A stretch of DNA of 64,000 bases from Escherichia phage phiWec179. Position numbers and translations under genes: made by a program. Where the stretch lies: sequence record LC739533.1; one strand, 5' to 3'. Shown here piece after piece: positions 52,786 through 63,513 of this stretch. Position 1 is the first letter of the stretch. Each line of letters begins with the position of its first letter. The notes under the pieces were generated by a model. It ran no database searches and was not told the origin of the DNA. It worked only from the letters and a program-made list of their open reading frames with translations.

Positions 52786-53760
52786 ATGCAACTTGGTTTT
52801 CCAATCATTGATGTAGTGGTGTTGGTAGGTATTCTTGTTCTGTCGATCTGTGTTGACTTTTTTGGTCATCGTGAAAACAAGGAGATCTCTTTCAAATCCG
52901 CTGTGGCTTGGTCAGTATTCTGGATTGGTGTGTCTTTAGCCTACTACGGTTTTGTATACTTCCAGCACGGCGCAGCTTTTGCAAACTTATTCTTGAGTGG
53001 ATATGTGTTAGAGAAGTCGCTCTCGGTAGATAACTTGGTAGTGTTTGTAGCAGTGTTCTCCAGTTTCGGGATTAAGAGCACACACTTACAACACAAAATT
53101 CTACTCTGGGGTATTGCAGGTGCGATTGTCTTCCGAGGTGTGTTTGTAGCAGCAGGGACTTATCTGCTAAGTTTGGGTTGGTTTGTTAATATCATCTTCG
53201 GTGCTGTTATCCTGTTCTGTGCTTTTAAAATGGTAATGGCTGGCGGTGATGATGAAGAAGTGGATTACTCTAAACATTGGGCGACACGCTTTGTACGTAA
53301 ACTATTCCCAGTATCGGATCAGATGGATGGCGAGAAGTTCTTCACAATTAAGAATGGTGTTCGTGTAGCAACTCCGGCTCTGGTTTGTGTGTTCGTGATG
53401 GAAATGGTGGATGTGATCTTTGCAGTAGACTCGGTTCCGGCTGTAATTGCAGTGACACAAGAACCACTGCTTGTATTCTCTTCGATGCTCTGTGCAATCT
53501 TAGGCTTACGTGCTCTGTTCTTTGTTCTTAGTGTGGCCCTGAAGTATCTGGTTCACCTGGAAAAAGCAGTTATCGCAGTCCTGGTGTTTGTTGGTGTGAA
53601 ACTGATGTATCACCCGTTTGCAGAAACGCTGCACGCAAAAGTGAGCTTCCTGCCAGCGCATATTGACCCGACGATCAGCATGTATATCGTGCTTGGTACT
53701 CTGACCCTGGGCGTGATTGCAAGTTTCATCTTCCCTGAAAAAGAAGAAGCTACCGCTTAA
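52786..53760 (+). CDS. terC: TerC-family integral membrane protein
   Basis: multiple TM helices; two TerC-type motifs EKSLSVDNLVVF and AVDSVPAVIAV. Confidence 0.7.
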   Translation: MQLGFPIIDVVVLVGILVLSICVDFFGHRENKEISFKSAVAWSVFWIGVSLAYYGFVYFQHGAAFANLFLSGYVLEKSLSVDNLVVFVAVFSSFGIKSTHLQHKILLWGIAGAIVFRGVFVAAGTYLLSLGWFVNIIFGAVILFCAFKMVMAGGDDEEVDYSKHWATRFVRKLFPVSDQMDGEKFFTIKNGVRVATPALVCVFVMEMVDVIFAVDSVPAVIAVTQEPLLVFSSMLCAILGLRALFFVLSVALKYLVHLEKAVIAVLVFVGVKLMYHPFAETLHAKVSFLPAHIDPTISMYIVLGTLTLGVIASFIFPEKEEATA

Positions 53761-53767
53761 TACCAAT

Positions 53768-53792
53768 GAACCTCCTTCGGGAGGTTTCTTAC
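53768..53792 (+). terminator. hairpin terminator after TerC-family gene
   Basis: GAACCTCCttcgGGAGGTTTCTT. Confidence 0.5.
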
Positions 53793-53808
53793 TAACATAG
53801 GAGGAATT

Positions 53809-54159
53809 ATGTCTGTATATTTTGACGATGTTCAGGAATATGTTTGGTGTCTTTCTGGCACAATCTCGGAAGTAGAAGCTGCGATTCAAGAGGTTTTTCC
53901 TTACGCTTATGTAGAAGTTAAACAGGCACCTCCTATGGATCTTCCCCCTAATGTGGAAGCTTGTTGTGGTTCCGGCGAGGGTACAGTCATCCCAGTTCTG
54001 CGTTACGAACTACAAGCAGCAAGTGCAAATGTCGATGATATTATTACAGAAATTAAGGCGTATGGTTTCTGGACCTCTCCTTACGCTAAATGGGATAACT
54101 CTGACACTTGGGATTTATTCTTCTGGGATAATGAGACAGATGACGAGGTATTTCTGTAA
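53809..54159 (+). CDS. hypothetical protein
   Basis: AGGAGG + ATG; 116 aa. Confidence 0.5.
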   Translation: MSVYFDDVQEYVWCLSGTISEVEAAIQEVFPYAYVEVKQAPPMDLPPNVEACCGSGEGTVIPVLRYELQAASANVDDIITEIKAYGFWTSPYAKWDNSDTWDLFFWDNETDDEVFL

Positions 54160-54401
54160 TGAAAGTTGTTTGGGTTGTGTTTGAAAATATTTGTTTTGCA
54201 ATAGGTTTGTTCGTCATACTTTTTGTGTTGACAAACGTGATCAATGGTAGTAAAGTATCCCTATACAAAGACGGGGAGCAGATTTACTGCTTCTCTGGAG
54301 ATTTCAAACACACCTGTGTTAATATGCAGAAAGAAGAAACTCCACACCAGAAGTCAAGAGAAGATTTTGATTGGTGGTCACTACTTAATAACTTAAGATG
54401 A
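54159..54401 (+). CDS. small membrane protein
   Basis: N-terminal TM VFENICFAIGLFVILFVL. Confidence 0.45.
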   Translation: MKVVWVVFENICFAIGLFVILFVLTNVINGSKVSLYKDGEQIYCFSGDFKHTCVNMQKEETPHQKSREDFDWWSLLNNLR

Positions 54402-54410
54402 GGAGAAAAT

Positions 54411-55280
54411 ATGAAAAATATTCAGCCATTACCTGTAGTTGGGGATTTGTATTTCTTATCTGGTACGGGTTATTCCCCAGAAGCATTAGAAGTTAACAAG
54501 AACGTCTTCCGAGTGAAAGAAATAAGAGAAGAATGTAATGAAATTGTTTTCGAAGGTATTACTAATGGAGTTCTTCAGTATGCAGAGATGCGTAGCTGCT
54601 TCCAGCAACCTTTCCGCCCGTTGGCAGACGAGTATAAGATTGCGGTAAATATTGATGATCTTAAAAAAGAACCAGGGTTCGAAGCGTTCTCTACTTTTAT
54701 GGAAGATACGTATGTGGATGTAAAGAGATCTAACCTTTTCGCGGGGGATAATTTCCCTCACTTTGTGTCAGAGAAAAGTGATGGTTTTTCCGACTACGTG
54801 GATGCTGTAAACTATGATGTTTCTGAATTGACAGGAGAGCAGGATTATCTTCTGCTGTCTCCTAAAGATTTCATGCGCGTAATGTATGCCGTAGCCGAAC
54901 AGAAAAAGAAGAAAGAAAAGCTTGTAGCCAAAAAAGTTAAAAAGGTTAAAGGTAAACGTGCCAAAGGTGTTCCAGAACGTAAGCGCACCGTAAATAAGGC
55001 GACAGTCTTCTTTACCAGCGGTGAGCAATATACGATCAAAGGTTTTAAAGAAGTGGGTTACACTGCTGGCGGAAACCTTCTGTTCTTCACAGTTGCAGAA
55101 GAAGGAGAAACTTTTATCCGTTTTTCCAATATGTGGGAAATGTCTGTAGAAGATATTAAAAGTGTTGTTGTTTTAGGTGTACATAAGAGTTTCATTATTA
55201 ATCAAATCTCTGATTTCAGTGCACACTTGACAGCACCAGATTTCGAAACTACCACAACAAGCTTTAACTTCAAGGTGTAA
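54411..55280 (+). CDS. hypothetical protein
   Basis: GAGGAG + ATG; 289 aa; Lys-rich internal tract. Confidence 0.5.
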   Translation: MKNIQPLPVVGDLYFLSGTGYSPEALEVNKNVFRVKEIREECNEIVFEGITNGVLQYAEMRSCFQQPFRPLADEYKIAVNIDDLKKEPGFEAFSTFMEDTYVDVKRSNLFAGDNFPHFVSEKSDGFSDYVDAVNYDVSELTGEQDYLLLSPKDFMRVMYAVAEQKKKKEKLVAKKVKKVKGKRAKGVPERKRTVNKATVFFTSGEQYTIKGFKEVGYTAGGNLLFFTVAEEGETFIRFSNMWEMSVEDIKSVVVLGVHKSFIINQISDFSAHLTAPDFETTTTSFNFKV

Positions 55281-55283
55281 TGC

Positions 55284-55874
55284 ATGAATACCGAGAGAGA
55301 TTTAAAACTCTTGTGGTGGGAAGTGATGCAGGAGATCAAGGAGGATTTCCCTGTTTACTACAACATGCTACGTGAAGCTGGATATACGGCTTGCGTTAGG
55401 AACAAAGTGAATAACTCTTTCGGTTGGTGCAACTACCGAGAAAAGATTGTTGTTGTGAATTGGCACTTGCATAAAAACTCCACAAGGGATATGATAGTGG
55501 ACACAATGAAGCATGAGATTGCTCATGCGATCGACGGTTGTATGGGTAAGTTCAGTCGTCATGGACCACACTGGCAAAAGCTGGCAGCAGAGTTGGGAGC
55601 CAATCCTAAAGCTACTTCCAAAGAACCGTTAAACCATGAGTACAAATATGTTCTTGTTTTGGTGGACAGATTTGCCACAAGATGTGTTAGAGGGTATAAT
55701 CGTAAACCTAACCGTATGACTCCAGGGAAACAACCACATATTTGGTTGAAGAGTGATAAAGAGGGGACAGAAGGAAAAATATGGTTGTATAAATGGGAAG
55801 ATTGGGTTAAAGTAGCTAAAGAATATGGTGTTTCACCTTACACAAGAGAAATAGAAGAGGAGAATGAAGAATGA
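55284..55874 (+). CDS. SprT-like zinc metalloprotease domain protein
   Basis: HExxH in MKHEIAHAID; N-terminal SFGWCNYREKIVVVNWHL typical of SprT. Confidence 0.55.
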   Translation: MNTERDLKLLWWEVMQEIKEDFPVYYNMLREAGYTACVRNKVNNSFGWCNYREKIVVVNWHLHKNSTRDMIVDTMKHEIAHAIDGCMGKFSRHGPHWQKLAAELGANPKATSKEPLNHEYKYVLVLVDRFATRCVRGYNRKPNRMTPGKQPHIWLKSDKEGTEGKIWLYKWEDWVKVAKEYGVSPYTREIEEENEE

Positions 55875-56983
55875 CAAGTCCATTTTTGAAAGCGGCAACT
55901 GGTGGTCAAAAGAAATCTGAAACGAGTGTACTGACTGCTACTACAGATGCAAGCAAGTCCGTGTTCGCTCCGAGTGTCCTGGATGCAAGTCCAGTGTATG
56001 CTCCAGCAGCGCCAAAAGCTGTGCCTACCTTGCCAACAATGTCTCGTAAAGAGATTGAAGAAGTGGGTGCAGAAGCAGGTTTAACTCTCCGCACGCTGAA
56101 TGCCGAAGTGTTAAAGCACCAACGTAGCAATCAAGGCGATGAAATGAGCCAACGCCTTACCGCGCTGATTAAACAAGCCAAACAGCTTGATCCTGCTTCT
56201 ATCAAGCAGAGCAAAGGTGTAGGCAAACTTATCAAGAAACTGATGGGTATGAAGGAAGATCTGTTCGGGGAATTCGATAATGTGAACAACCGTATCGAAG
56301 AACTCGTTAAGAATCTTCAGATGGATATTCGTAAAGAAGAAGATTCTCTGGTGTACCTGGAGAAGCTGCACCAGGCGATCGGACAGTACGCCGCAAGCCT
56401 GAATCGTGATATGGAATTACTCACAGCAGCTTATGAGCAAGAACTGGCTAACTTTGAAGCTACGCCAGAAGATGACGTAGAAGCCCGTCAACGCGTCCGT
56501 GACACGCTTGATCTTCTGGAGATACGTATTGCTGACTTGAAGGCATTACGCTTGCTGTGCGTGCAAATGGGTCCGCGTGTATTGGGTATGCAGAAAGTAT
56601 CTGCCAGCCTCATGCGTTCTGCTCGTAATATTGTGAACAATGTGATTCCTGCTTACTCGGCAAACTTCTCGATGTATATTGAAAGTCTGCGCCAGAAGAA
56701 AGCAGCAGAAACACAGAACAACGTTCTGGACGAGTTCAACCTGGCAATCAAACTGGGTAGCGATCTTGCCACACAGAACCAGATCGAAGCAGCAGCACTG
56801 GCTAACCGCCAAGTGTTGGATATCGAAACTCTGCGTCACGATCAGGAGAACTTGGTTAAGATGTTGGAAGAAACTAACCGCATCAATACGGAAGCCCGTG
56901 CTGCCCGTGTTGATTACATCAATGAAGTTCAATCTCTCGAAGATGGGATGGTTGACGCTGTTAAGAAGGGGTTGGGTAAATGA
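55871..56983 (+). CDS. TelA-like (toxic anion resistance family) protein, tentative
   Basis: 370 aa, predicted long helices/coiled coil; size and Ter context fit TelA; no single diagnostic motif verified. Confidence 0.45.
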   Translation: MTSPFLKAATGGQKKSETSVLTATTDASKSVFAPSVLDASPVYAPAAPKAVPTLPTMSRKEIEEVGAEAGLTLRTLNAEVLKHQRSNQGDEMSQRLTALIKQAKQLDPASIKQSKGVGKLIKKLMGMKEDLFGEFDNVNNRIEELVKNLQMDIRKEEDSLVYLEKLHQAIGQYAASLNRDMELLTAAYEQELANFEATPEDDVEARQRVRDTLDLLEIRIADLKALRLLCVQMGPRVLGMQKVSASLMRSARNIVNNVIPAYSANFSMYIESLRQKKAAETQNNVLDEFNLAIKLGSDLATQNQIEAAALANRQVLDIETLRHDQENLVKMLEETNRINTEARAARVDYINEVQSLEDGMVDAVKKGLGK

Positions 56984-57186
56984 GAATCCGTGTATACATG
57001 CTTGACGAACAAGCTGGAGAAATAGGTGTTCGTTATGATGAAGAGAAACGCTTTGCCCCAATGACCCAGCTACAAACTCCAGATATTTTTGCAGCTTGTC
57101 GTGACGGATATATCTATGAAGGTTGTCGCAACTTTGGCAGATTTAAAGTTATTTCTGATGTGGAATTTAACGAGGAGGAAGAATGA
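56980..57186 (+). CDS. hypothetical protein
   Basis: 68 aa; ATGA overlap. Confidence 0.45.
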   Translation: MRIRVYMLDEQAGEIGVRYDEEKRFAPMTQLQTPDIFAACRDGYIYEGCRNFGRFKVISDVEFNEEEE

Positions 57187-57353
57187 AAACATTGCGTGTG
57201 AACATCGAAACTACCTGGCGAGATTTCGAGGTTGTTGATATTGAGATTGAAGACGATATGTCTCAAGAAGATATCGAAGATCTTGCAAAAGAAACATTTC
57301 AGGACTATTGTAATTACGGGTTCCATATTTTAGGGGAGGAAGAAGATGTTTAA
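57183..57353 (+). CDS. small acidic protein (56 aa)
   Basis: GAGGAGG + ATG; stop overlaps next ATG; below ORF-track cutoff. Confidence 0.4.
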   Translation: MKTLRVNIETTWRDFEVVDIEIEDDMSQEDIEDLAKETFQDYCNYGFHILGEEEDV

Positions 57354-57744
57354 ACACACAAACGTAAACTTGAAATTAACAGTAACAGATCCGACTCTTT
57401 TCATCAATCTTACAAGCGGGGAAGTTTATGAAGTTATCACAGACGAGGATGGTTCTTGCTTCCTTAAAGGTTATTATCTCTGTGAATCTGATGAGTTGGT
57501 ATCTATTATCACCTTGGGAGAATACGAAGAACCAGGCTTCCGTGTGGAGGTTGTTAAGAATCCCGATATTATCCAGTTGACTCGCCAAGAACTGATCACA
57601 ATCATGGAAGACGCTTTTATTGATGGATGGAAGACTCAAAACTATGATTGGAGTGGCCCAGAAGACTTCCTGCGTCTTCATAAAGAGTATGACGATTCCA
57701 GCGAAACTACTATTGCCATTGATAGTATTAAGGCTGGTGTGTAA
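57346..57744 (+). CDS. hypothetical protein
   Basis: 132 aa. Confidence 0.5.
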   Translation: MFKHTNVNLKLTVTDPTLFINLTSGEVYEVITDEDGSCFLKGYYLCESDELVSIITLGEYEEPGFRVEVVKNPDIIQLTRQELITIMEDAFIDGWKTQNYDWSGPEDFLRLHKEYDDSSETTIAIDSIKAGV

Positions 57745-57762
57745 TGAAAAGTGTTGACAACA

Positions 57763-57812
57763 ATCTCCATAAGATGGATAATACCTCCATCGAAAAAACG
57801 GGAGGAGATAAG
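57763..57812 (+). promoter_or_regulatory. promoter + leader hairpin
   Basis: TTGACA-N17-TAATAC, CCTCCatcgaaaaaacGGGAGG, then ATG 57814. Confidence 0.4.
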
Positions 57813-57813
57813 A

Positions 57814-58086
57814 ATGTTTGATTTTAAAATAAAGGATTCAAAACCCCAAGATGTAGCAGTTCGTTTCGAAGAGTTGGGGATTGGTGAAACTTTCATGTAT
57901 TATTCAGCATATGAAGAAAATGGTTTGGATACATTTGCAAACTTAGTATTCCTTAAAAGCGGCGGCGCGACTGCTGTTTGTTTGAATAGTTCATCAAGAG
58001 GGAGTGTCCATACCGTATCCCCAGATGTGCCGATGGTTGCAGTTCGTTTAGTAGTTACTGATATTACACTTACAGAGGAGAAATAA
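57814..58086 (+). CDS. small protein, paralog B1 (pairs with vWA gene)
   Basis: ATG at 57814 (MFDFKIKDSKPQ); paralog of 59108..59389. Confidence 0.45.
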   Translation: MFDFKIKDSKPQDVAVRFEELGIGETFMYYSAYEENGLDTFANLVFLKSGGATAVCLNSSSRGSVHTVSPDVPMVAVRLVVTDITLTEEK

Positions 58087-58087
58087 T

Positions 58088-58888
58088 ATGTCCAATAAAA
58101 TTAGCCTGAAGAAACGCCAAGACACCCTGACCATTTCACTGAAGAAAAAGAAAATTGTCAACGAAGATCAAAAGATCGTTCTGCGTGTTGCAAGCGCACT
58201 GGATATCTCCGGCAGCATGTCCAGCCTGTATCGTAACGGTACTGTAAGTGAGTTTGTTGGTAAGCTGCTTCCGTTTGGTATGCTGTTCGATGATAACGCG
58301 CAGATCGATATGTGGGCTTTCAACAATAGCTCTCGTGAAATCACTCCAGCAACTGCTGATGTGTATGATGATTACGTTGGTAAATGCATTAATGGTCGTG
58401 TAACAGTCCAGGGTGGCACAAGCTATGCACCTGTTATGCAGGATATTTACGATTCCTACTTCGGTAGCACCACTAAATATGAAACTGTAGAAACCCCTGT
58501 AACCAAAGAAGTTCCTAAGAAAGGTTTCTTCAACCGTTTACTGGGTAAAACCGAAACTGTAGAAGCTATTGTAGAAAAAACTGTAGCCGTTGCTGTGCCT
58601 GGTGTAGACGTTACTCCGGCAGTTGTGTTCTTCCAGACAGATGGAGAGAACGATGATCCGAGCCGTGTACTCTCCGTACTGGAAAAGAACAAGGGTAAAC
58701 CTATTTACTGGTTCATGGTGGGTGTTGGTAGTGCTCGTTTCTCTTTCCTGAAAGATTTGGCTGAAGCTTACGACAACGTAGCATTCATTGGTCTGAACGA
58801 TCTTTCCTTGACAGACGAGCAGCTTTACGATAAACTCTTGTCTGAAGAGTTCGGTGAGTGGGTTGAAAAGGTTGGTGCTAAGAAATGA
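58088..58888 (+). CDS. vWA-domain protein with TerD-like N-terminus (TerY/TerF-like)
   Basis: N-terminal KISLKK..ISLKKK; MIDAS DISGSM, GGTSYAP, QTDGEND. Confidence 0.65.
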   Translation: MSNKISLKKRQDTLTISLKKKKIVNEDQKIVLRVASALDISGSMSSLYRNGTVSEFVGKLLPFGMLFDDNAQIDMWAFNNSSREITPATADVYDDYVGKCINGRVTVQGGTSYAPVMQDIYDSYFGSTTKYETVETPVTKEVPKKGFFNRLLGKTETVEAIVEKTVAVAVPGVDVTPAVVFFQTDGENDDPSRVLSVLEKNKGKPIYWFMVGVGSARFSFLKDLAEAYDNVAFIGLNDLSLTDEQLYDKLLSEEFGEWVEKVGAKK

Positions 58889-59127
58889 TCGACACGCTGA
58901 TCTCTCAAACGGTGTTGCAAGTGATGCGTGAGAGAGAAGCTTTCATCATGAAGGGTCTTAAAGATTATTTTGGGACTCTTTCTTTGGAAGAACTCAAACT
59001 ACGCGTTGAGATCCATGCGTATCCTTCTTATGAAGAATGGATTGACAAAGCAAATAAAGCTGTTATAATGCGTATCAACAAACCAGAAATCACGACAGGA
59101 GGACAAGATGTTAAATTTCGCCATTAA
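58885..59127 (+). CDS. hypothetical protein
   Basis: 80 aa; ATGA overlap. Confidence 0.45.
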   Translation: MIDTLISQTVLQVMREREAFIMKGLKDYFGTLSLEELKLRVEIHAYPSYEEWIDKANKAVIMRINKPEITTGGQDVKFRH

Positions 59128-59389
59128 GAAAGATAGCAAACCAAAGATTCAGACTTGTCGCATTGCAAATCTTACACATGGTGATTTGTTTGTTCTGAAA
59201 AGTGCCTACGACGAAGACGGTCTTGATCCAGAAGCAGTCGTCGTTTATATGGTGTTGCGGCGAGATGAAGACACCAAGCACCCATACAATGCGGTAGAGA
59301 TGAATTACAATGCAATGTTGTGCTCAATACACTATACGGCAGAGTTGGTGCAGGTAGAGTTAACAGTTAACGAAATTAAACTTAAATAA
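59108..59389 (+). CDS. small protein, paralog B2 (pairs with TerD gene)
   Basis: AGGAGG + ATG (MLNFAIKKDSKPK); paralog of 57814..58086. Confidence 0.45.
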   Translation: MLNFAIKKDSKPKIQTCRIANLTHGDLFVLKSAYDEDGLDPEAVVVYMVLRRDEDTKHPYNAVEMNYNAMLCSIHYTAELVQVELTVNEIKLK

Positions 59390-59404
59390 TAGAGGAGACA
59401 CATA

Positions 59405-60007
59405 ATGAGCGATAAAATTTCCCTGAAAAAAGGTTCCACCGAGAAGATTTCCCTGAAGAAAGTTGCTCCGGCACTGAAAGAACTGCGTCTGGAGTTCTCC
59501 TGGAAATCAAACTCTAAACTGGATCTGGATGTAAGCGCACTTGTATGCCGACACAACGCCTCTGGCAACCCTGAAATGCTGTCTGCACGTCATCTGGTTT
59601 GTTATGCTAACAAGTTTGATCCAGAACGTTCTGTATTCGCAGGTGATGATGTTCGTGACGGTACTGGTCAAATGGAACAAATCGATGTAACCTTGGCTAA
59701 GATCTCCGATAAAGCCGAAGAGATTGCTTTTGTCCTAACTATTGATGATGAAACGGGTCAGAAACGTCTGGGTCACGCTACTGAAGGTATGCTGAAGATC
59801 TTTGATGCCGAGCGTAACGTTGAGATCCTGGACTTCGACTTCTTGGCTCCTGAAGTGGCTGGTAATACCATCTGCCACGTAGCTTCCCTGGTTCGTGAAG
59901 ACGGTGAATGGAAACTGAAAGCTTACGGTGTTGGTAAAGCAGGTATGGATATCTGTGATGTGGTTATGGCCTTCGGTGGTCAGAAAGAATGGTACGATTG
60001 CCCGTAA
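59405..60007 (+). CDS. terD: TerD-family (tellurium resistance / Ca-binding) protein
   Basis: alignable by eye over full length to canonical TerD: N-terminal ISLKKG..ISLKK, LDLDVSAL, GDDVRDGTGQMEQIDV, IAFVLTIDD, GEWKLKAYGVG. Confidence 0.9.
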   Translation: MSDKISLKKGSTEKISLKKVAPALKELRLEFSWKSNSKLDLDVSALVCRHNASGNPEMLSARHLVCYANKFDPERSVFAGDDVRDGTGQMEQIDVTLAKISDKAEEIAFVLTIDDETGQKRLGHATEGMLKIFDAERNVEILDFDFLAPEVAGNTICHVASLVREDGEWKLKAYGVGKAGMDICDVVMAFGGQKEWYDCP

Positions 60008-60027
60008 GATTTAACTGAAATGTTGTT

Positions 60028-60043
60028 GGGGGAGAAATCCCCC
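60028..60043 (+). terminator. hairpin after TerD gene
   Basis: GGGGGAgaaaTCCCCC, 20 nt past stop. Confidence 0.4.
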
Positions 60044-60044
60044 A

Positions 60045-60073
60045 TTGCAAAAACGCCTCTCATGTGTTATACT
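60045..60073 (+). promoter_or_regulatory. sigma70-like promoter
   Basis: TTGCAA-N17-TATACT upstream of 60105. Confidence 0.45.
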
Positions 60074-60104
60074 GGTAGTTCATTCACCCAAAAGGAGGCA
60101 AAAT

Positions 60105-60626
60105 TTGCTGATAAAAAACTTTGTAACAGTTGCGTTACTATCCTTAACTGCTTTTACATTTACACCTGTCACGGCAACCGCCGAAGCTGCAAACGTAAAG
60201 ACTGCTAAAGTAGTTCACAAATGTGCAAAGCAAGATACTAAAGAAAATCTCTTGGCTTGTGCAATTTACGCTGAAAGTCGTAATCAGGGTAAACGTGGGA
60301 TGTATGCTGTAGGTAATGTAGTATTGAACAGGAAAGGTGATGATTACTTCCCTGATAATATTAAAGATATTCTCTTCCAACGAGGACAATTCTCTTACAG
60401 GAAGAAGTTTAACGTTACCGAAGCAGAGCGATGGAAAGAAGCTAAAGCTATCGCAAAACGACTTATATACCTGGATACACACTTCCCTACACTTAGAGAA
60501 GCCCAGGACATGACAAAAGGTGCGACATTTTTTAAGAAAGTAAAAACCCGTGCACACTGGACAAAAGATATGGTCTTAGTGTATCGTTATAAAGAACATC
60601 AGTTCTACCTACCGACAAGGAGCTAA
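60105..60626 (+). CDS. SleB-like cell wall hydrolase with signal peptide
   Basis: AAGGAGG + TTG start; signal-like FVTVALLSLTAFTFTPVTATAEA; LACAIYAESRNQGKRGMYAVGNVVLNRKGDDYFP...QRGQFSY. Confidence 0.7.
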   Translation: MLIKNFVTVALLSLTAFTFTPVTATAEAANVKTAKVVHKCAKQDTKENLLACAIYAESRNQGKRGMYAVGNVVLNRKGDDYFPDNIKDILFQRGQFSYRKKFNVTEAERWKEAKAIAKRLIYLDTHFPTLREAQDMTKGATFFKKVKTRAHWTKDMVLVYRYKEHQFYLPTRS

Positions 60627-60627
60627 T

Positions 60628-60912
60628 ATGCGAGAAGATAATACTGTTGTTGTTGCGAGCTATCTCGTTATCGGTTTAACCGAAGAAGATGTGTACTACA
60701 TTCGTAAAGGTTTGGAAGCTTACGCTACCCTCTTCATGGAAGACGAAAGCGATGTTGATAAATATTCCGTGGAGTTGATCAACGACAGTATTTATCCTTG
60801 CATAGCTCTTAAAGTAGATGCTGTTCTGTGGGAGCGTTTTGCAAGAAGTCACGATGCTATTGAATCTTCAATGGTTATGACACAAAACAACATTTTGGGG
60901 GTGATTCACTAA
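60628..60912 (+). CDS. hypothetical protein
   Basis: AAGGAG + ATG; 94 aa. Confidence 0.45.
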   Translation: MREDNTVVVASYLVIGLTEEDVYYIRKGLEAYATLFMEDESDVDKYSVELINDSIYPCIALKVDAVLWERFARSHDAIESSMVMTQNNILGVIH

Positions 60913-61142
60913 TGGCAGATATCATTGAGGTAAACTTCCGTACTCGGAAGAAAGTAGAGAAATATACAATATTGAAAAGTGTTTGCGTTGTTTGTTTCAA
61001 TAGTGTAATCTACGATTCAAGAAAGGGCGAAGACGGTAATGAGCCGTATATCGAACTGTCAAAGGGCAACGGTAGTTGCATTTGTAAAGCTTGTGCTGTT
61101 CAGATTAAGGGGGTTGTTGATGAAAACGAATGGGATAAATAA
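60912..61142 (+). CDS. hypothetical Cys-rich protein
   Basis: CVVCFNS ... CICKAC cysteine pairs. Confidence 0.4.
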   Translation: MADIIEVNFRTRKKVEKYTILKSVCVVCFNSVIYDSRKGEDGNEPYIELSKGNGSCICKACAVQIKGVVDENEWDK

Positions 61143-61323: not shown

Positions 61324-61887
61324 ATGATTTATTATATTACCCCCTATCTAAGTGGAGATATCGGCAAAGCAATTAACGATGCTATTGCCGTTCTTCACGA
61401 AGATAGTTGGGTCTGTTTACGTGATATCGATACCATGTTCTTACTGCCAGACCAACCTTCTATGTTGGAAGATTTGGTAGCAACCAATCCACCGTTTGAT
61501 GTGATCGGTGCGTCTTGTAATCGTTTAGGTAGTGGTTATCAACTTCTCGGTGGAAAGATTGATGATGATCCTAACATTCTGAACCATATTTCTCATGCCA
61601 AAGTTGCTCGTGATTACTATGGTGATGAAATTGAAGAAGTCCCACAAGGCACTCCCTTAGCAGGTTTCTTTCTATTGTTCAGGAAATCATTATGGAAGGA
61701 GATCCCTTTTGAAGAACGTACCATCCAGTTCGATATAATCTTCTCAAACACTTTACATGAACGAGGAAAAAGGTTAGGATTGATGCGTGGGATGTATCTC
61801 TTCCATATTTACCGTTTAGGTCAAAAAGATCCTCAACGGGCAATATCACACCTTATGCATTGTCATGATCACCGGAAAACTATTTAG
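61324..61887 (+). CDS. hypothetical protein
   Basis: AAGGGG + ATG; 187 aa. Confidence 0.5.
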   Translation: MIYYITPYLSGDIGKAINDAIAVLHEDSWVCLRDIDTMFLLPDQPSMLEDLVATNPPFDVIGASCNRLGSGYQLLGGKIDDDPNILNHISHAKVARDYYGDEIEEVPQGTPLAGFFLLFRKSLWKEIPFEERTIQFDIIFSNTLHERGKRLGLMRGMYLFHIYRLGQKDPQRAISHLMHCHDHRKTI

Positions 61888-61895
61888 GGGGAAAG

Positions 61896-62579
61896 ATGGA
61901 AAATATTAAAATTGGGGTTGGCGTTATCACTGTAGGTGTTCGTCCACTTAAAGATTACATGGTTGCACCTGGTGTAGACTTCAAAGTGTTTCACGATCCC
62001 GATCGTAAAGGTGTAGCTTATGCTCGCAACCAATTAATGAAACAGTTCTACGATGAAGGTTTTGACTACTGGTTCATTTTTGACGATGATTGCTATCCGG
62101 TTAAACGTGGCTGGGAAGAATACTTCGTTAACCAGGCTGTCGAGAATGGTTGGGACTTCTTCGGTATGCCAGAATACTTCAAAGATACTGTGATAGGTTG
62201 TTCTGGAGAAGTAGTCTTCTGGGAATTGGCTATGTGTCAGTTTGCAATGTATTCTCGTGCAACTGTTGAGACGATGGGTTATTTCCGTCCTTATACACAC
62301 GGATATGGTTTCGAAGATGCAGAATGGACTAATCGTCTGAAAGCTTCAGGTTTGAATAAAGGACTCCAGGGCGTACCTTGTCCGATGCGCATTATGGCGT
62401 ACATTCACCCCGACGATGTTTTCGGTGATAACCCTTTACCTTTTGCTAATCTGACAAAAGAAGAGAAAGAATCAGCAATCGGGATCAATTGGGAAGAATA
62501 CAAACTGTCTTTGGAGGATATTAATAATGGCAAAACACACATCTCTTTTGAAGAGGCTGAAGGATATGGCGTTAAATAA
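61896..62579 (+). CDS. GT-A-fold glycosyltransferase-like protein
   Basis: N-terminal IGVGVITVG, DxD-type FIFDDDCYP, downstream GYGFEDAEWTNRL. Confidence 0.5.
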   Translation: MENIKIGVGVITVGVRPLKDYMVAPGVDFKVFHDPDRKGVAYARNQLMKQFYDEGFDYWFIFDDDCYPVKRGWEEYFVNQAVENGWDFFGMPEYFKDTVIGCSGEVVFWELAMCQFAMYSRATVETMGYFRPYTHGYGFEDAEWTNRLKASGLNKGLQGVPCPMRIMAYIHPDDVFGDNPLPFANLTKEEKESAIGINWEEYKLSLEDINNGKTHISFEEAEGYGVK

Positions 62580-63513
62580 GAAACCAACCCTACTGTGTGA
62601 CAACAAATTCAACAGTGGTTGTGATTACCATCGCATTGTCATGCCATTTTCTAACACAGAGATCAAGCCACGTACTGATGTACTGGTCTTTAACCGCATC
62701 TTCTCGAAGGGTGCTGATGAAGTAGCCAAACTTAAGCGCCAAGGTGTTAAGATTGTTGTAGATTTGGATGATTTCTATCAATTGAATCCAGAACACTACC
62801 TGGCGCATCTGTACGCGCCAAACACCCGCACAATCGTGGAAATGGTTAAAATAGCAGATATTGTCATTGTCACAACCGAATACCTGGCGTACAAAGTTCG
62901 TCACTTAAACTCTAACGTTGTTGTGATCCGAAATGCTCTACCGTTTGATGATGGTCAATTCACTCTCTCGAATGATCGTACTTCGGGTACGCCTATCATT
63001 TGGGCTGGAGGTGCGAGTCATGAACCGGATTTACGTTTGCTTTCAAACACTTTTGATGATAGTTTATTGTCTATCGCAGGGTATGAAGCGAGCAGCACAG
63101 TGACAGGGCAAGAGTGGGTTAAGATCCGCCGTAGTTTGCCTAATGCGCAGTATAAACCTGCTGTAGATTCTTTGAATCATTATATGTCTGCATACGATGG
63201 TCATGCTATGGCTGTAGCTCCGTTAGTAGATAACGACTTCAACCATTGCAAGAGCAACCTGAAAGTATTAGAAGCTGGTGCTAAAGGCATTCCAATCGTT
63301 TGTTCTAAGGTATTACCTTACTACAACCCGATCGATGCCCGTGCAGTAACCTTCGCAGATAGCAAAGCAGAGTGGCACTATGAAGTTGTAAAACTACTTC
63401 GTAATCCAAACTACCGCGAAGATCGTGGACTGTTCTTGGCTGAACATGTTCGTACTCACTACAACTTGAAGGATGCAAACGAATTGCGTCGTCAAGTGAT
63501 CGAAAGTCTGTAG
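62566..63513 (+). CDS. glycosyltransferase-like protein (tandem paralog 1; start uncertain)
   Basis: start at 62566 chosen by alignment to paralog N-terminus (alternative 62527); CDYHRIVMPF, DLDDFYQ, NALPFDDGQFTLSNDRTSGTPIIWAGGASHEPDL. Confidence 0.45.
   Translation: MALNKKPTLLCDNKFNSGCDYHRIVMPFSNTEIKPRTDVLVFNRIFSKGADEVAKLKRQGVKIVVDLDDFYQLNPEHYLAHLYAPNTRTIVEMVKIADIVIVTTEYLAYKVRHLNSNVVVIRNALPFDDGQFTLSNDRTSGTPIIWAGGASHEPDLRLLSNTFDDSLLSIAGYEASSTVTGQEWVKIRRSLPNAQYKPAVDSLNHYMSAYDGHAMAVAPLVDNDFNHCKSNLKVLEAGAKGIPIVCSKVLPYYNPIDARAVTFADSKAEWHYEVVKLLRNPNYREDRGLFLAEHVRTHYNLKDANELRRQVIESL

Follow-up and report, generated by a model that had tools for sequence, protein, structure and literature searches.

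The stretch of DNA analyzed here (64,000 nucleotides of Escherichia phage phiWec179, LC739533.1; hereafter, the window) contains, at its positions 57814 to 60007, two genes encoding proteins of about 90 amino acids, which lie next to genes for a TerF-like von Willebrand factor A (vWA) protein and for a TerD-domain protein. What are these small proteins, and do they work with the Ter-type proteins encoded beside them? They had been described as the first members of a duplicated two-gene unit and as possible obligate partners of the proteins encoded downstream. Judging mainly from sequence comparisons, we tentatively propose, as a reading that is quite possible but somewhat short of probable, that the small proteins may serve the phage vWA/TerD module as accessory or adaptor subunits that evolve fast and are specific to one lineage.

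Two paralogous small genes beside a vWA gene and a TerD gene

Four open reading frames (ORFs) were recovered on the plus strand, in agreement with the original prediction: small protein 1 (90 amino acids, 57814-58086), encoded before the vWA gene and referred to as the UP type; the vWA-TerF-like protein (266 amino acids, 58088-58888); small protein 2 (93 amino acids, 59108-59389), encoded between the vWA and TerD genes and referred to as the MID type; and the TerD-domain protein (200 amino acids, 59405-60007). They are preceded by the Shine-Dalgarno sequences GGAGG, GAGGAG, AGGAGG, and GAGGAG, respectively, and they match coding sequences in the GenBank record of Escherichia phage phiWec181, all labeled "hypothetical protein". 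A formal alignment of the two small proteins extends from end to end, with 34% identity and 51% positives (E 2e-10), and both match PHROG 11278 over their full length (residues 1-90 of small protein 1, E 2.9e-28; residues 1-93 of small protein 2, E 2.2e-16), so that the proposed paralogy holds. PHROG 11278 is an unannotated phage family, and searches of Pfam, NCBIfam, PADLOC, and PDB sequences with the small proteins gave no match, which bears out the view that they form an uncharacterized family; to this, the present analysis adds the paralogy, the predicted fold, and the linkage to vWA and TerD. No third copy of the small gene was found within the 64-kb window.

The two larger proteins, which had been read as vWA and TerD, were identified as such by their Pfam matches. 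The vWA protein matches PF10138 with 129 bits (cut-off 29.4), and its metal ion-dependent adhesion site (MIDAS; DxSxS...T...D) is complete, D39, S41, S43, T111, and D185 being invariant in 58 homologs. Its AlphaFold2 (AF2) model has a predicted local distance difference test score (pLDDT) of 92.9, and its closest solved relatives are the vWA domains of copines and RGLG. The TerD protein matches PF02342 with 103 bits (cut-off 25.3), residues 5-180 corresponding to positions 3-178 of the 187 in the profile, and it also matches solved TerD structures (3IBZ, E 3e-14; 2KXT, E 6e-14). Of the acidic calcium-binding motifs of the solved TerD proteins, DLD.SAL is retained, and GDDVRDGTGQMEQI is aligned to GDNITGEGEGDDEQI with several acidic positions altered.

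The vWA protein has an insert (residues 127-171) that the Pfam vWA model lacks; it is predicted to form a long beta-hairpin arm, the tip of which is helical (KKGFFNRLLGK). Other phage homologs carry a similar motif, G-F-F-x-K-L-F-G-K, in this insert, and bacterial homologs carry one right at their N-terminus (MGFFKKLFGGKK, MSFLKNLFGNK); it may be a membrane-binding amphipathic element.

The genes are tightly packed. The stop codon of small gene 1 and the start of the vWA gene are separated by a 1-nt gap, which suggests translational coupling, and the spacer between small gene 2 and the TerD gene is 15 nt. A fifth ORF, orf80 (80 amino acids, 58885-59127, plus strand), had been left out of the two-unit description. 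It matches PHROG 22387, which has no assigned function, and lies between the vWA gene and small gene 2, overlapping both: an ATGA combines the orf80 start codon with the vWA stop codon, and orf80 overlaps the start of small gene 2 by 20 nt. It was seen solely in the arrangement with two small gene copies, and its ratio of nonsynonymous to synonymous substitution rates (dN/dS) is 0.22-0.37.

Two sigma-70 promoter-like sites were detected on the plus strand by a consensus scan. The first (57754-57782; TTGACA-17-GATAAT, 11/12) is located within the 69-nt gap upstream of small gene 1. The second (59042-59069; TTGACA-16-TATAAT, 12/12 plus an extended TG) is embedded in orf80, 39 nt upstream of small gene 2; its extended -10 element is TGTTATAAT, giving TTGACA-16-TGTTATAAT. 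This motif recurs at the equivalent place inside orf80 in phage tuntematon (L002, 8520-8547) and in the metagenomic relatives L010 and L011, despite an overall DNA identity of about 77%. Since there are two such sites, the second of which is conserved in diverged relatives, a division of the locus into two sub-operons is supported, small1-vWA-orf80 and small2-TerD, with one small copy at the head of each; promoter activity at both sites is presumed from their match to the consensus. In our preferred reading, the small genes would be co-transcribed with the flanking vWA and TerD genes and probably translationally coupled to them.

A similar arrangement would be expected if an ancestral cassette, made of a small gene and an ISLKK-headed gene, had been duplicated, each small protein then being the dedicated, obligate partner of the protein encoded downstream. 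We consider this improbable. It is true that each small gene heads a promoter-led pair in the present phage, and the division into two putative sub-operons is the part of the two-unit description that stands. The N-termini of the vWA and TerD proteins also share 14 of 20 residues (MSxKISLKK...ISLKK), with no similarity elsewhere. However, vWA and TerD are different folds and different Pfam families that have only these 20 N-terminal residues in common; only the small gene is duplicated, and a duplication of the whole unit is thus contradicted.

The shared motif is, furthermore, general to both families. In TerD, ISLKK is the start of the TerD domain itself, the Pfam match beginning at residue 5. 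In the vWA family, it takes the form of a double [ILV]-S-L-x-K motif, of which L7, K9, L18, and K20 are at least 90% conserved in 58 phage and bacterial homologs, and ISLKK-type motifs occur in bacterial vWA-TerF-like proteins, for example GISLKKSVISLDK, and between the domains of a TerD-vWA fusion. Shared by the vWA-TerF-like proteins of phages and bacteria alike, the motif is not specific to the arrangement with small genes. Residues 7-20 of the vWA protein, the ISLKK...ISLKK segment, were predicted by AF2 to form an alpha-helix and not a TerD-type hairpin (pLDDT about 82-95; window 58094-58150, residues 3-21), and the motif may have a different structure in the two proteins. The ISLKK heads pointed out in the original prediction are real but, judged from these alignments, are no marker of a special pairing with the small proteins.

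Adjacency, distribution, and evolution of the small genes

The surroundings of the small gene were surveyed in 15 loci carrying a member of the family, representing 11 distinct contexts. In all 11, the small gene adjoins vWA and/or TerD, in line with the adjacency expected in other genomes, and its position and copy number differ. The order small-vWA-orf80-like-small-TerD was observed in the window, tuntematon, and metagenomic L010/L011; small-vWA-TerD in phi92 and Klebsiella phage 05F01; vWA-small-TerD in L005, L006/L007, L008, and IMG/VR L023, the vWA gene overlapping the small gene by 8 nt in L005/L006; vWA-small-small-TerD in L009/L012/L013; and small-TerD at a contig edge in L014. One further IMG/VR locus, L022, was discarded as a false positive, having no hidden Markov model (HMM) match. 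The relatives with a single small gene before or after the vWA gene, or with two in tandem, argue against the duplication of a cassette and against the two-unit description.

A six-member profile of the family retrieved 23 clusters among 5.8 billion proteins, and the longest contigs carrying them were phage-sized (140-154 kb). When 1.84 billion representatives were searched with HMMER, 26 matches were obtained at E <=0.001, of which 19 were small proteins whose full-length form has 87-93 amino acids. By these searches, the PHROG 11278 family is restricted to Stephanstirmvirinae-like phages of about 150 kb. No small domain fused to TerD or vWA was found in the search of the 1.84 billion representatives. 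The other seven matches were long proteins aligned through short repeated stretches and were regarded as spurious; P0025, the sole long match inspected, is a repeat protein whose repeats were read as fibronectin-III-like. An origin of the small protein as a degraded fragment of TerD or vWA was also rejected (hhalign probability <1% for both).

Across contexts, family members are 24-56% identical to the window protein. M1, F4, L21, G24, F27, K48, N58, and V81 are conserved, a GLD loop is present in most members, and the invariant or near-invariant residues are, besides K48 and N58, mostly hydrophobic or glycine. Between the window and tuntematon, identity amounts to 91% for TerD, 73% for vWA, 51% for the UP protein, and 42% for the MID protein, and the small proteins evolve about four to eight times faster than TerD. 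The dN/dS of the small genes is about 0.2-0.5, versus about 0.05 for TerD, TerC, and TelA in the same genome pairs, all of these values being rough owing to saturated dS. The small genes are coding, and these ratios show them to be under purifying but relaxed (or diversifying) constraint.

In a neighbor-joining tree, which is based on about 90 residues and is indicative only, a UP clade is separated from a MID clade within the group of coliphages and Klebsiella phages; such orthology groups, which track position, are also what a duplicated cassette would leave. Because the tree places the single-copy MID forms of distant phages outside both clades, it suggests that the ancestral position of the small gene was just upstream of TerD and that the copy preceding vWA arose by duplication. 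It further suggests that the MID copy was later lost in phi92 and 05F01 and that the duplication in L009 was independent. What was duplicated is the small gene, inside a pre-existing vWA-TerD operon, and the present phage has kept a copy at the head of each putative promoter-led sub-operon.

These features can be read in another way, which we hold to be rather unlikely but which deserves serious consideration: the small proteins could be independent ORFan-type phage proteins, with a role, for example, in host takeover or anti-defense, and their adjacency to vWA and TerD could result from inherited synteny and shared promoters. The family is limited to one lineage, whose members are syntenic throughout the TerC-to-primase block, and it evolves fast, with 40-50% identity where TerD has about 90%. 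Citrobacter phage Tr1 and Klebsiella phage FBKp34, themselves Stephanstirmvirinae, keep vWA and TerD without the small family. The same block also harbors orf80, ORFs of 56 and 68 amino acids, and, in L021, an unrelated 69-amino-acid ORF between vWA and TerD.

Several observations likewise weigh against the idea that the small proteins belong to the module. In addition to Tr1 and FBKp34, CcrColossus, Pseudoalteromonas J2-1, and metagenomic L019 and L021 carry vWA and TerD, and no member of the small family was found in any of these loci by HMM and hhalign comparisons; a bacterial vWA-TerF-like locus in Paenibacillus is also without one. No hidden divergent homolog was detected among the neighboring small ORFs of Tr1, FBKp34, CcrColossus, J2-1, L019, L020, L021, and the window, and tblastn found the vWA gene in 213 phage records versus 126 for the small gene. 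The carriers all belong to one syntenic phage lineage, so that the adjacency is partly explained by inherited gene order, and other variable small ORFs sit in the same block. No motif in the small proteins points to a ligand, and the dN/dS estimates have the imprecision already mentioned.

The vWA and TerD proteins do not require the small protein. The idea of an obligate partnership was thus right in that every small gene adjoins vWA or TerD (11/11 contexts), but the six phage loci with vWA and TerD and without the family indicate that the small protein is not an obligate partner, which also counts against a duplicated cassette. As for independent ORFan-type proteins, the position and copy number of the small gene shift, yet in 11 contexts, with protein identities of 25-50%, it was never found away from the vWA/TerD pair. 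The small genes also appear to be translationally coupled to the vWA and TerD genes, and each putative sub-operon has kept a duplicate as its first gene. Repositioning and at least two duplications, always within the vWA/TerD pair, argue for a functional linkage beyond frozen synteny.

Predicted fold and proposed role of the small proteins

The AF2 model of small protein 1, built from a 21-sequence alignment (mean pLDDT 80.6; predicted template modeling score 0.70), contains five strands (residues 26-29, 46-48, 53-56, 65-67, and 73-77), in keeping with the earlier description of the small proteins as beta-rich, and the protein is predicted to be a small beta-barrel, loosely SH3-like. Confidence is low (57) for residues 1-10, among them the invariant M1 and F4. 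At the C-terminus, a conserved segment of alternating hydrophobic residues (V77-x-L79-x-V81...L86) has no strand partner in the model, a hint of oligomerization or of beta-strand addition to a partner. A Foldseek search of the model against the PDB returned nothing significant. A search of BFVD gave two matches at E <=0.001, one of which is the phAPEC8 ortholog of small protein 2, with a template modeling score of 0.85 to the model of small protein 1; this second, independent model shows the two paralogs to have the same fold.

The resemblance of the small proteins to SH3-like barrels (FeoA, the C-terminal domain of DtxR/IdeR, KOW, and Tudor) is at the level of generic-fold scores only. This loose resemblance, to KOW/L2/Tudor on the one hand and to FeoA/DtxR on the other, brings to mind nucleic-acid-binding or metal-handling regulators that would govern Ter gene expression or deliver metal to TerC or TerD. 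We judge such a role very unlikely: besides the generic scores and the lack of a significant Foldseek match, the family members examined are all acidic (pI 4.3-5.5, and 4.6 for small protein 1), which is unfavorable for nucleic-acid binding, and no conserved Cys or His ligands were found in the family alignment. Another SH3-like barrel is encoded at 4631-4888 of L021, in which the small family is absent: this 85-amino-acid Phage_tudor protein (PF24144) lies two genes downstream of TerD, and hhalign found no sequence relation between it and the small family.

If the small proteins are subunits of the vWA/TerD module, they would be components of a phage Ter membrane-stress and exclusion module, beside the MIDAS-containing vWA protein and the calcium-binding-type TerD protein. 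Through beta-strand addition, the barrel and its two conserved, strand-like but unpaired ends (N-terminal M-x-x-F... and C-terminal V-x-L-x-V-[ST]-x-[IV]-x-L) would attach to TerD and/or vWA, or dimerize, and this would tune the assembly or the specificity of a TerD/vWA/TelA/TerC complex during infection. In contrast to the acidic small proteins, the N-termini of the neighboring vWA and TerD proteins carry charges of +4 to +8. A tie between these basic N-termini and the presence of a small gene was considered and rejected, as Tr1 breaks the pattern and the remainder is confounded by phylogeny.

A bolder version, which we regard as a long shot, would make the small barrels the specificity or self-immunity element of phage Ter exclusion: they would bind the basic N-terminal elements of TerD and vWA, gate the assembly of the complex, spare the phage's own infection, and block superinfecting phages. 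If this were true, it would give initial access to the on-off control of a Ter module. More generally, a small protein that binds TerD or vWA would provide a tractable genetic and biochemical entry point to Ter systems; one that does not would be one more uncharacterized phage family with a tidy neighborhood. What is added here to a known kind of system is a previously unrecognized candidate component, strictly co-located, repeatedly duplicated, and fast-evolving, and its weight stays modest as long as no binding to TerD or vWA is shown.

The Ter block of the window and described Ter systems

The region 57000-61000 of the window is 100% identical in Escherichia phages phiWec181 and phiWec186 (Phapecoctavirus, Stephanstirmvirinae) and about 77-81% identical in other phAPEC8-like phages. 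The small, vWA, and TerD genes form the end of a one-strand Ter block and are followed by a gene for a SleB-type cell-wall hydrolase. Upstream, Pfam matches on the plus strand identified a HAD-like hydrolase (50501-51157), PRTase_3 (51129-51977), a Macro domain protein (51987-52469), TerC (52786-53760), a SprT-like protein (55284-55874), and TelA (55871-56983), and small ORFs of unassigned role are scattered among these genes (50501-56983, plus strand). With TerC, TelA, TerD, and a TerF-type vWA protein, plus PRTase and HAD, on one strand, the block at 50.5-60.0 kb matches a phage Ter system in its predicted gene content.

The genes for the HAD-like hydrolase, PRTase_3, and the Macro domain protein (50501-52469) are directly upstream of TerC and correspond to the proposed nucleoside-metabolite arm of complete Ter systems plus an ADP-ribose-type module. 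The SprT-like gene, which encodes a metallopeptidase domain, directly precedes the TelA gene, with an overlap between the two; metagenomic L010 has this pair as well, and L021 has a SprT-like gene close to its Ter genes. The Ter block is closely preceded, at 47398-49679, by genes for the anaerobic ribonucleotide reductase NrdD (604 amino acids) and its radical-SAM activator NrdG (156 amino acids). Downstream of the block and the hydrolase gene, a run of predicted glycosyltransferase genes (61324-63513) is syntenic with phi92, tuntematon, and metagenomic relatives. The GC skew of the window is about -0.2 up to about 16 kb, near 0 to -0.15 in the middle, about -0.18 at 32-36 kb, and positive (+0.06 to +0.2) past about 36 kb, consistent with gene blocks of opposite orientation.

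A block of the coliphage type, with the same gene order, is also present in records named Pseudomonas phage PsgM04F, Campylobacter phages B15, A145, A110a, and C3, and Acinetobacter phage vB_AbaM_ABPW7. PsgM04F is 95.5% and ABPW7 about 78% identical in DNA to the region 57000-61000 of the window, and the small-protein homologs of the Campylobacter records are about 51% identical at the protein level; the host labels of all these records look doubtful.

Many bacteria, plasmids, and large phages have Ter clusters, which are tied to resistance to tellurite, phages, and colicins. To our knowledge, the way in which TerD, TerF-type vWA proteins, TelA, and TerC work jointly is still unexplained. Phage-encoded Ter systems were reportedly described by Anantharaman, Iyer and Aravind in 2012. 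TerF of the terZABCDEF operon is a TerD domain fused to a vWA domain, that is, the same two domains as those flanking the small genes, and distant-homolog fusions (P0143, P0144, P0146, and P0147) were recovered in our analysis. In the window phage, unlike in TerF, TerD and vWA are two distinct proteins, and the gene for a small barrel precedes their genes or lies between them.

Among Ter components, Iyer et al. 2021 list TerC, TerD, TerF vWA, and TelA, plus TerB, PRTase, and HAD enzymes (PMC7824862), and TerC, TerD, TerF vWA, and TelA are noted for Klebsiella phage phiKp34 (PMC8386662). In both reports, phage-encoded Ter clusters are proposed to serve in a membrane-linked stress response or in the exclusion of competing phages. 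The window has the same set of TerC, TelA, a copine-type TerF-like vWA protein, TerD, PRTase, and HAD as the phage Ter systems outlined in PMC7824862, and a role as a stress or exclusion module, as proposed in both reports, is taken as the context here. The barrel proteins of about 90 amino acids are absent from the Ter component lists of PMC7824862 and PMC8386662. Compared with phage Ter systems as those lists present them, the small family would be an extra component, present in one phage lineage and in variable copy number.

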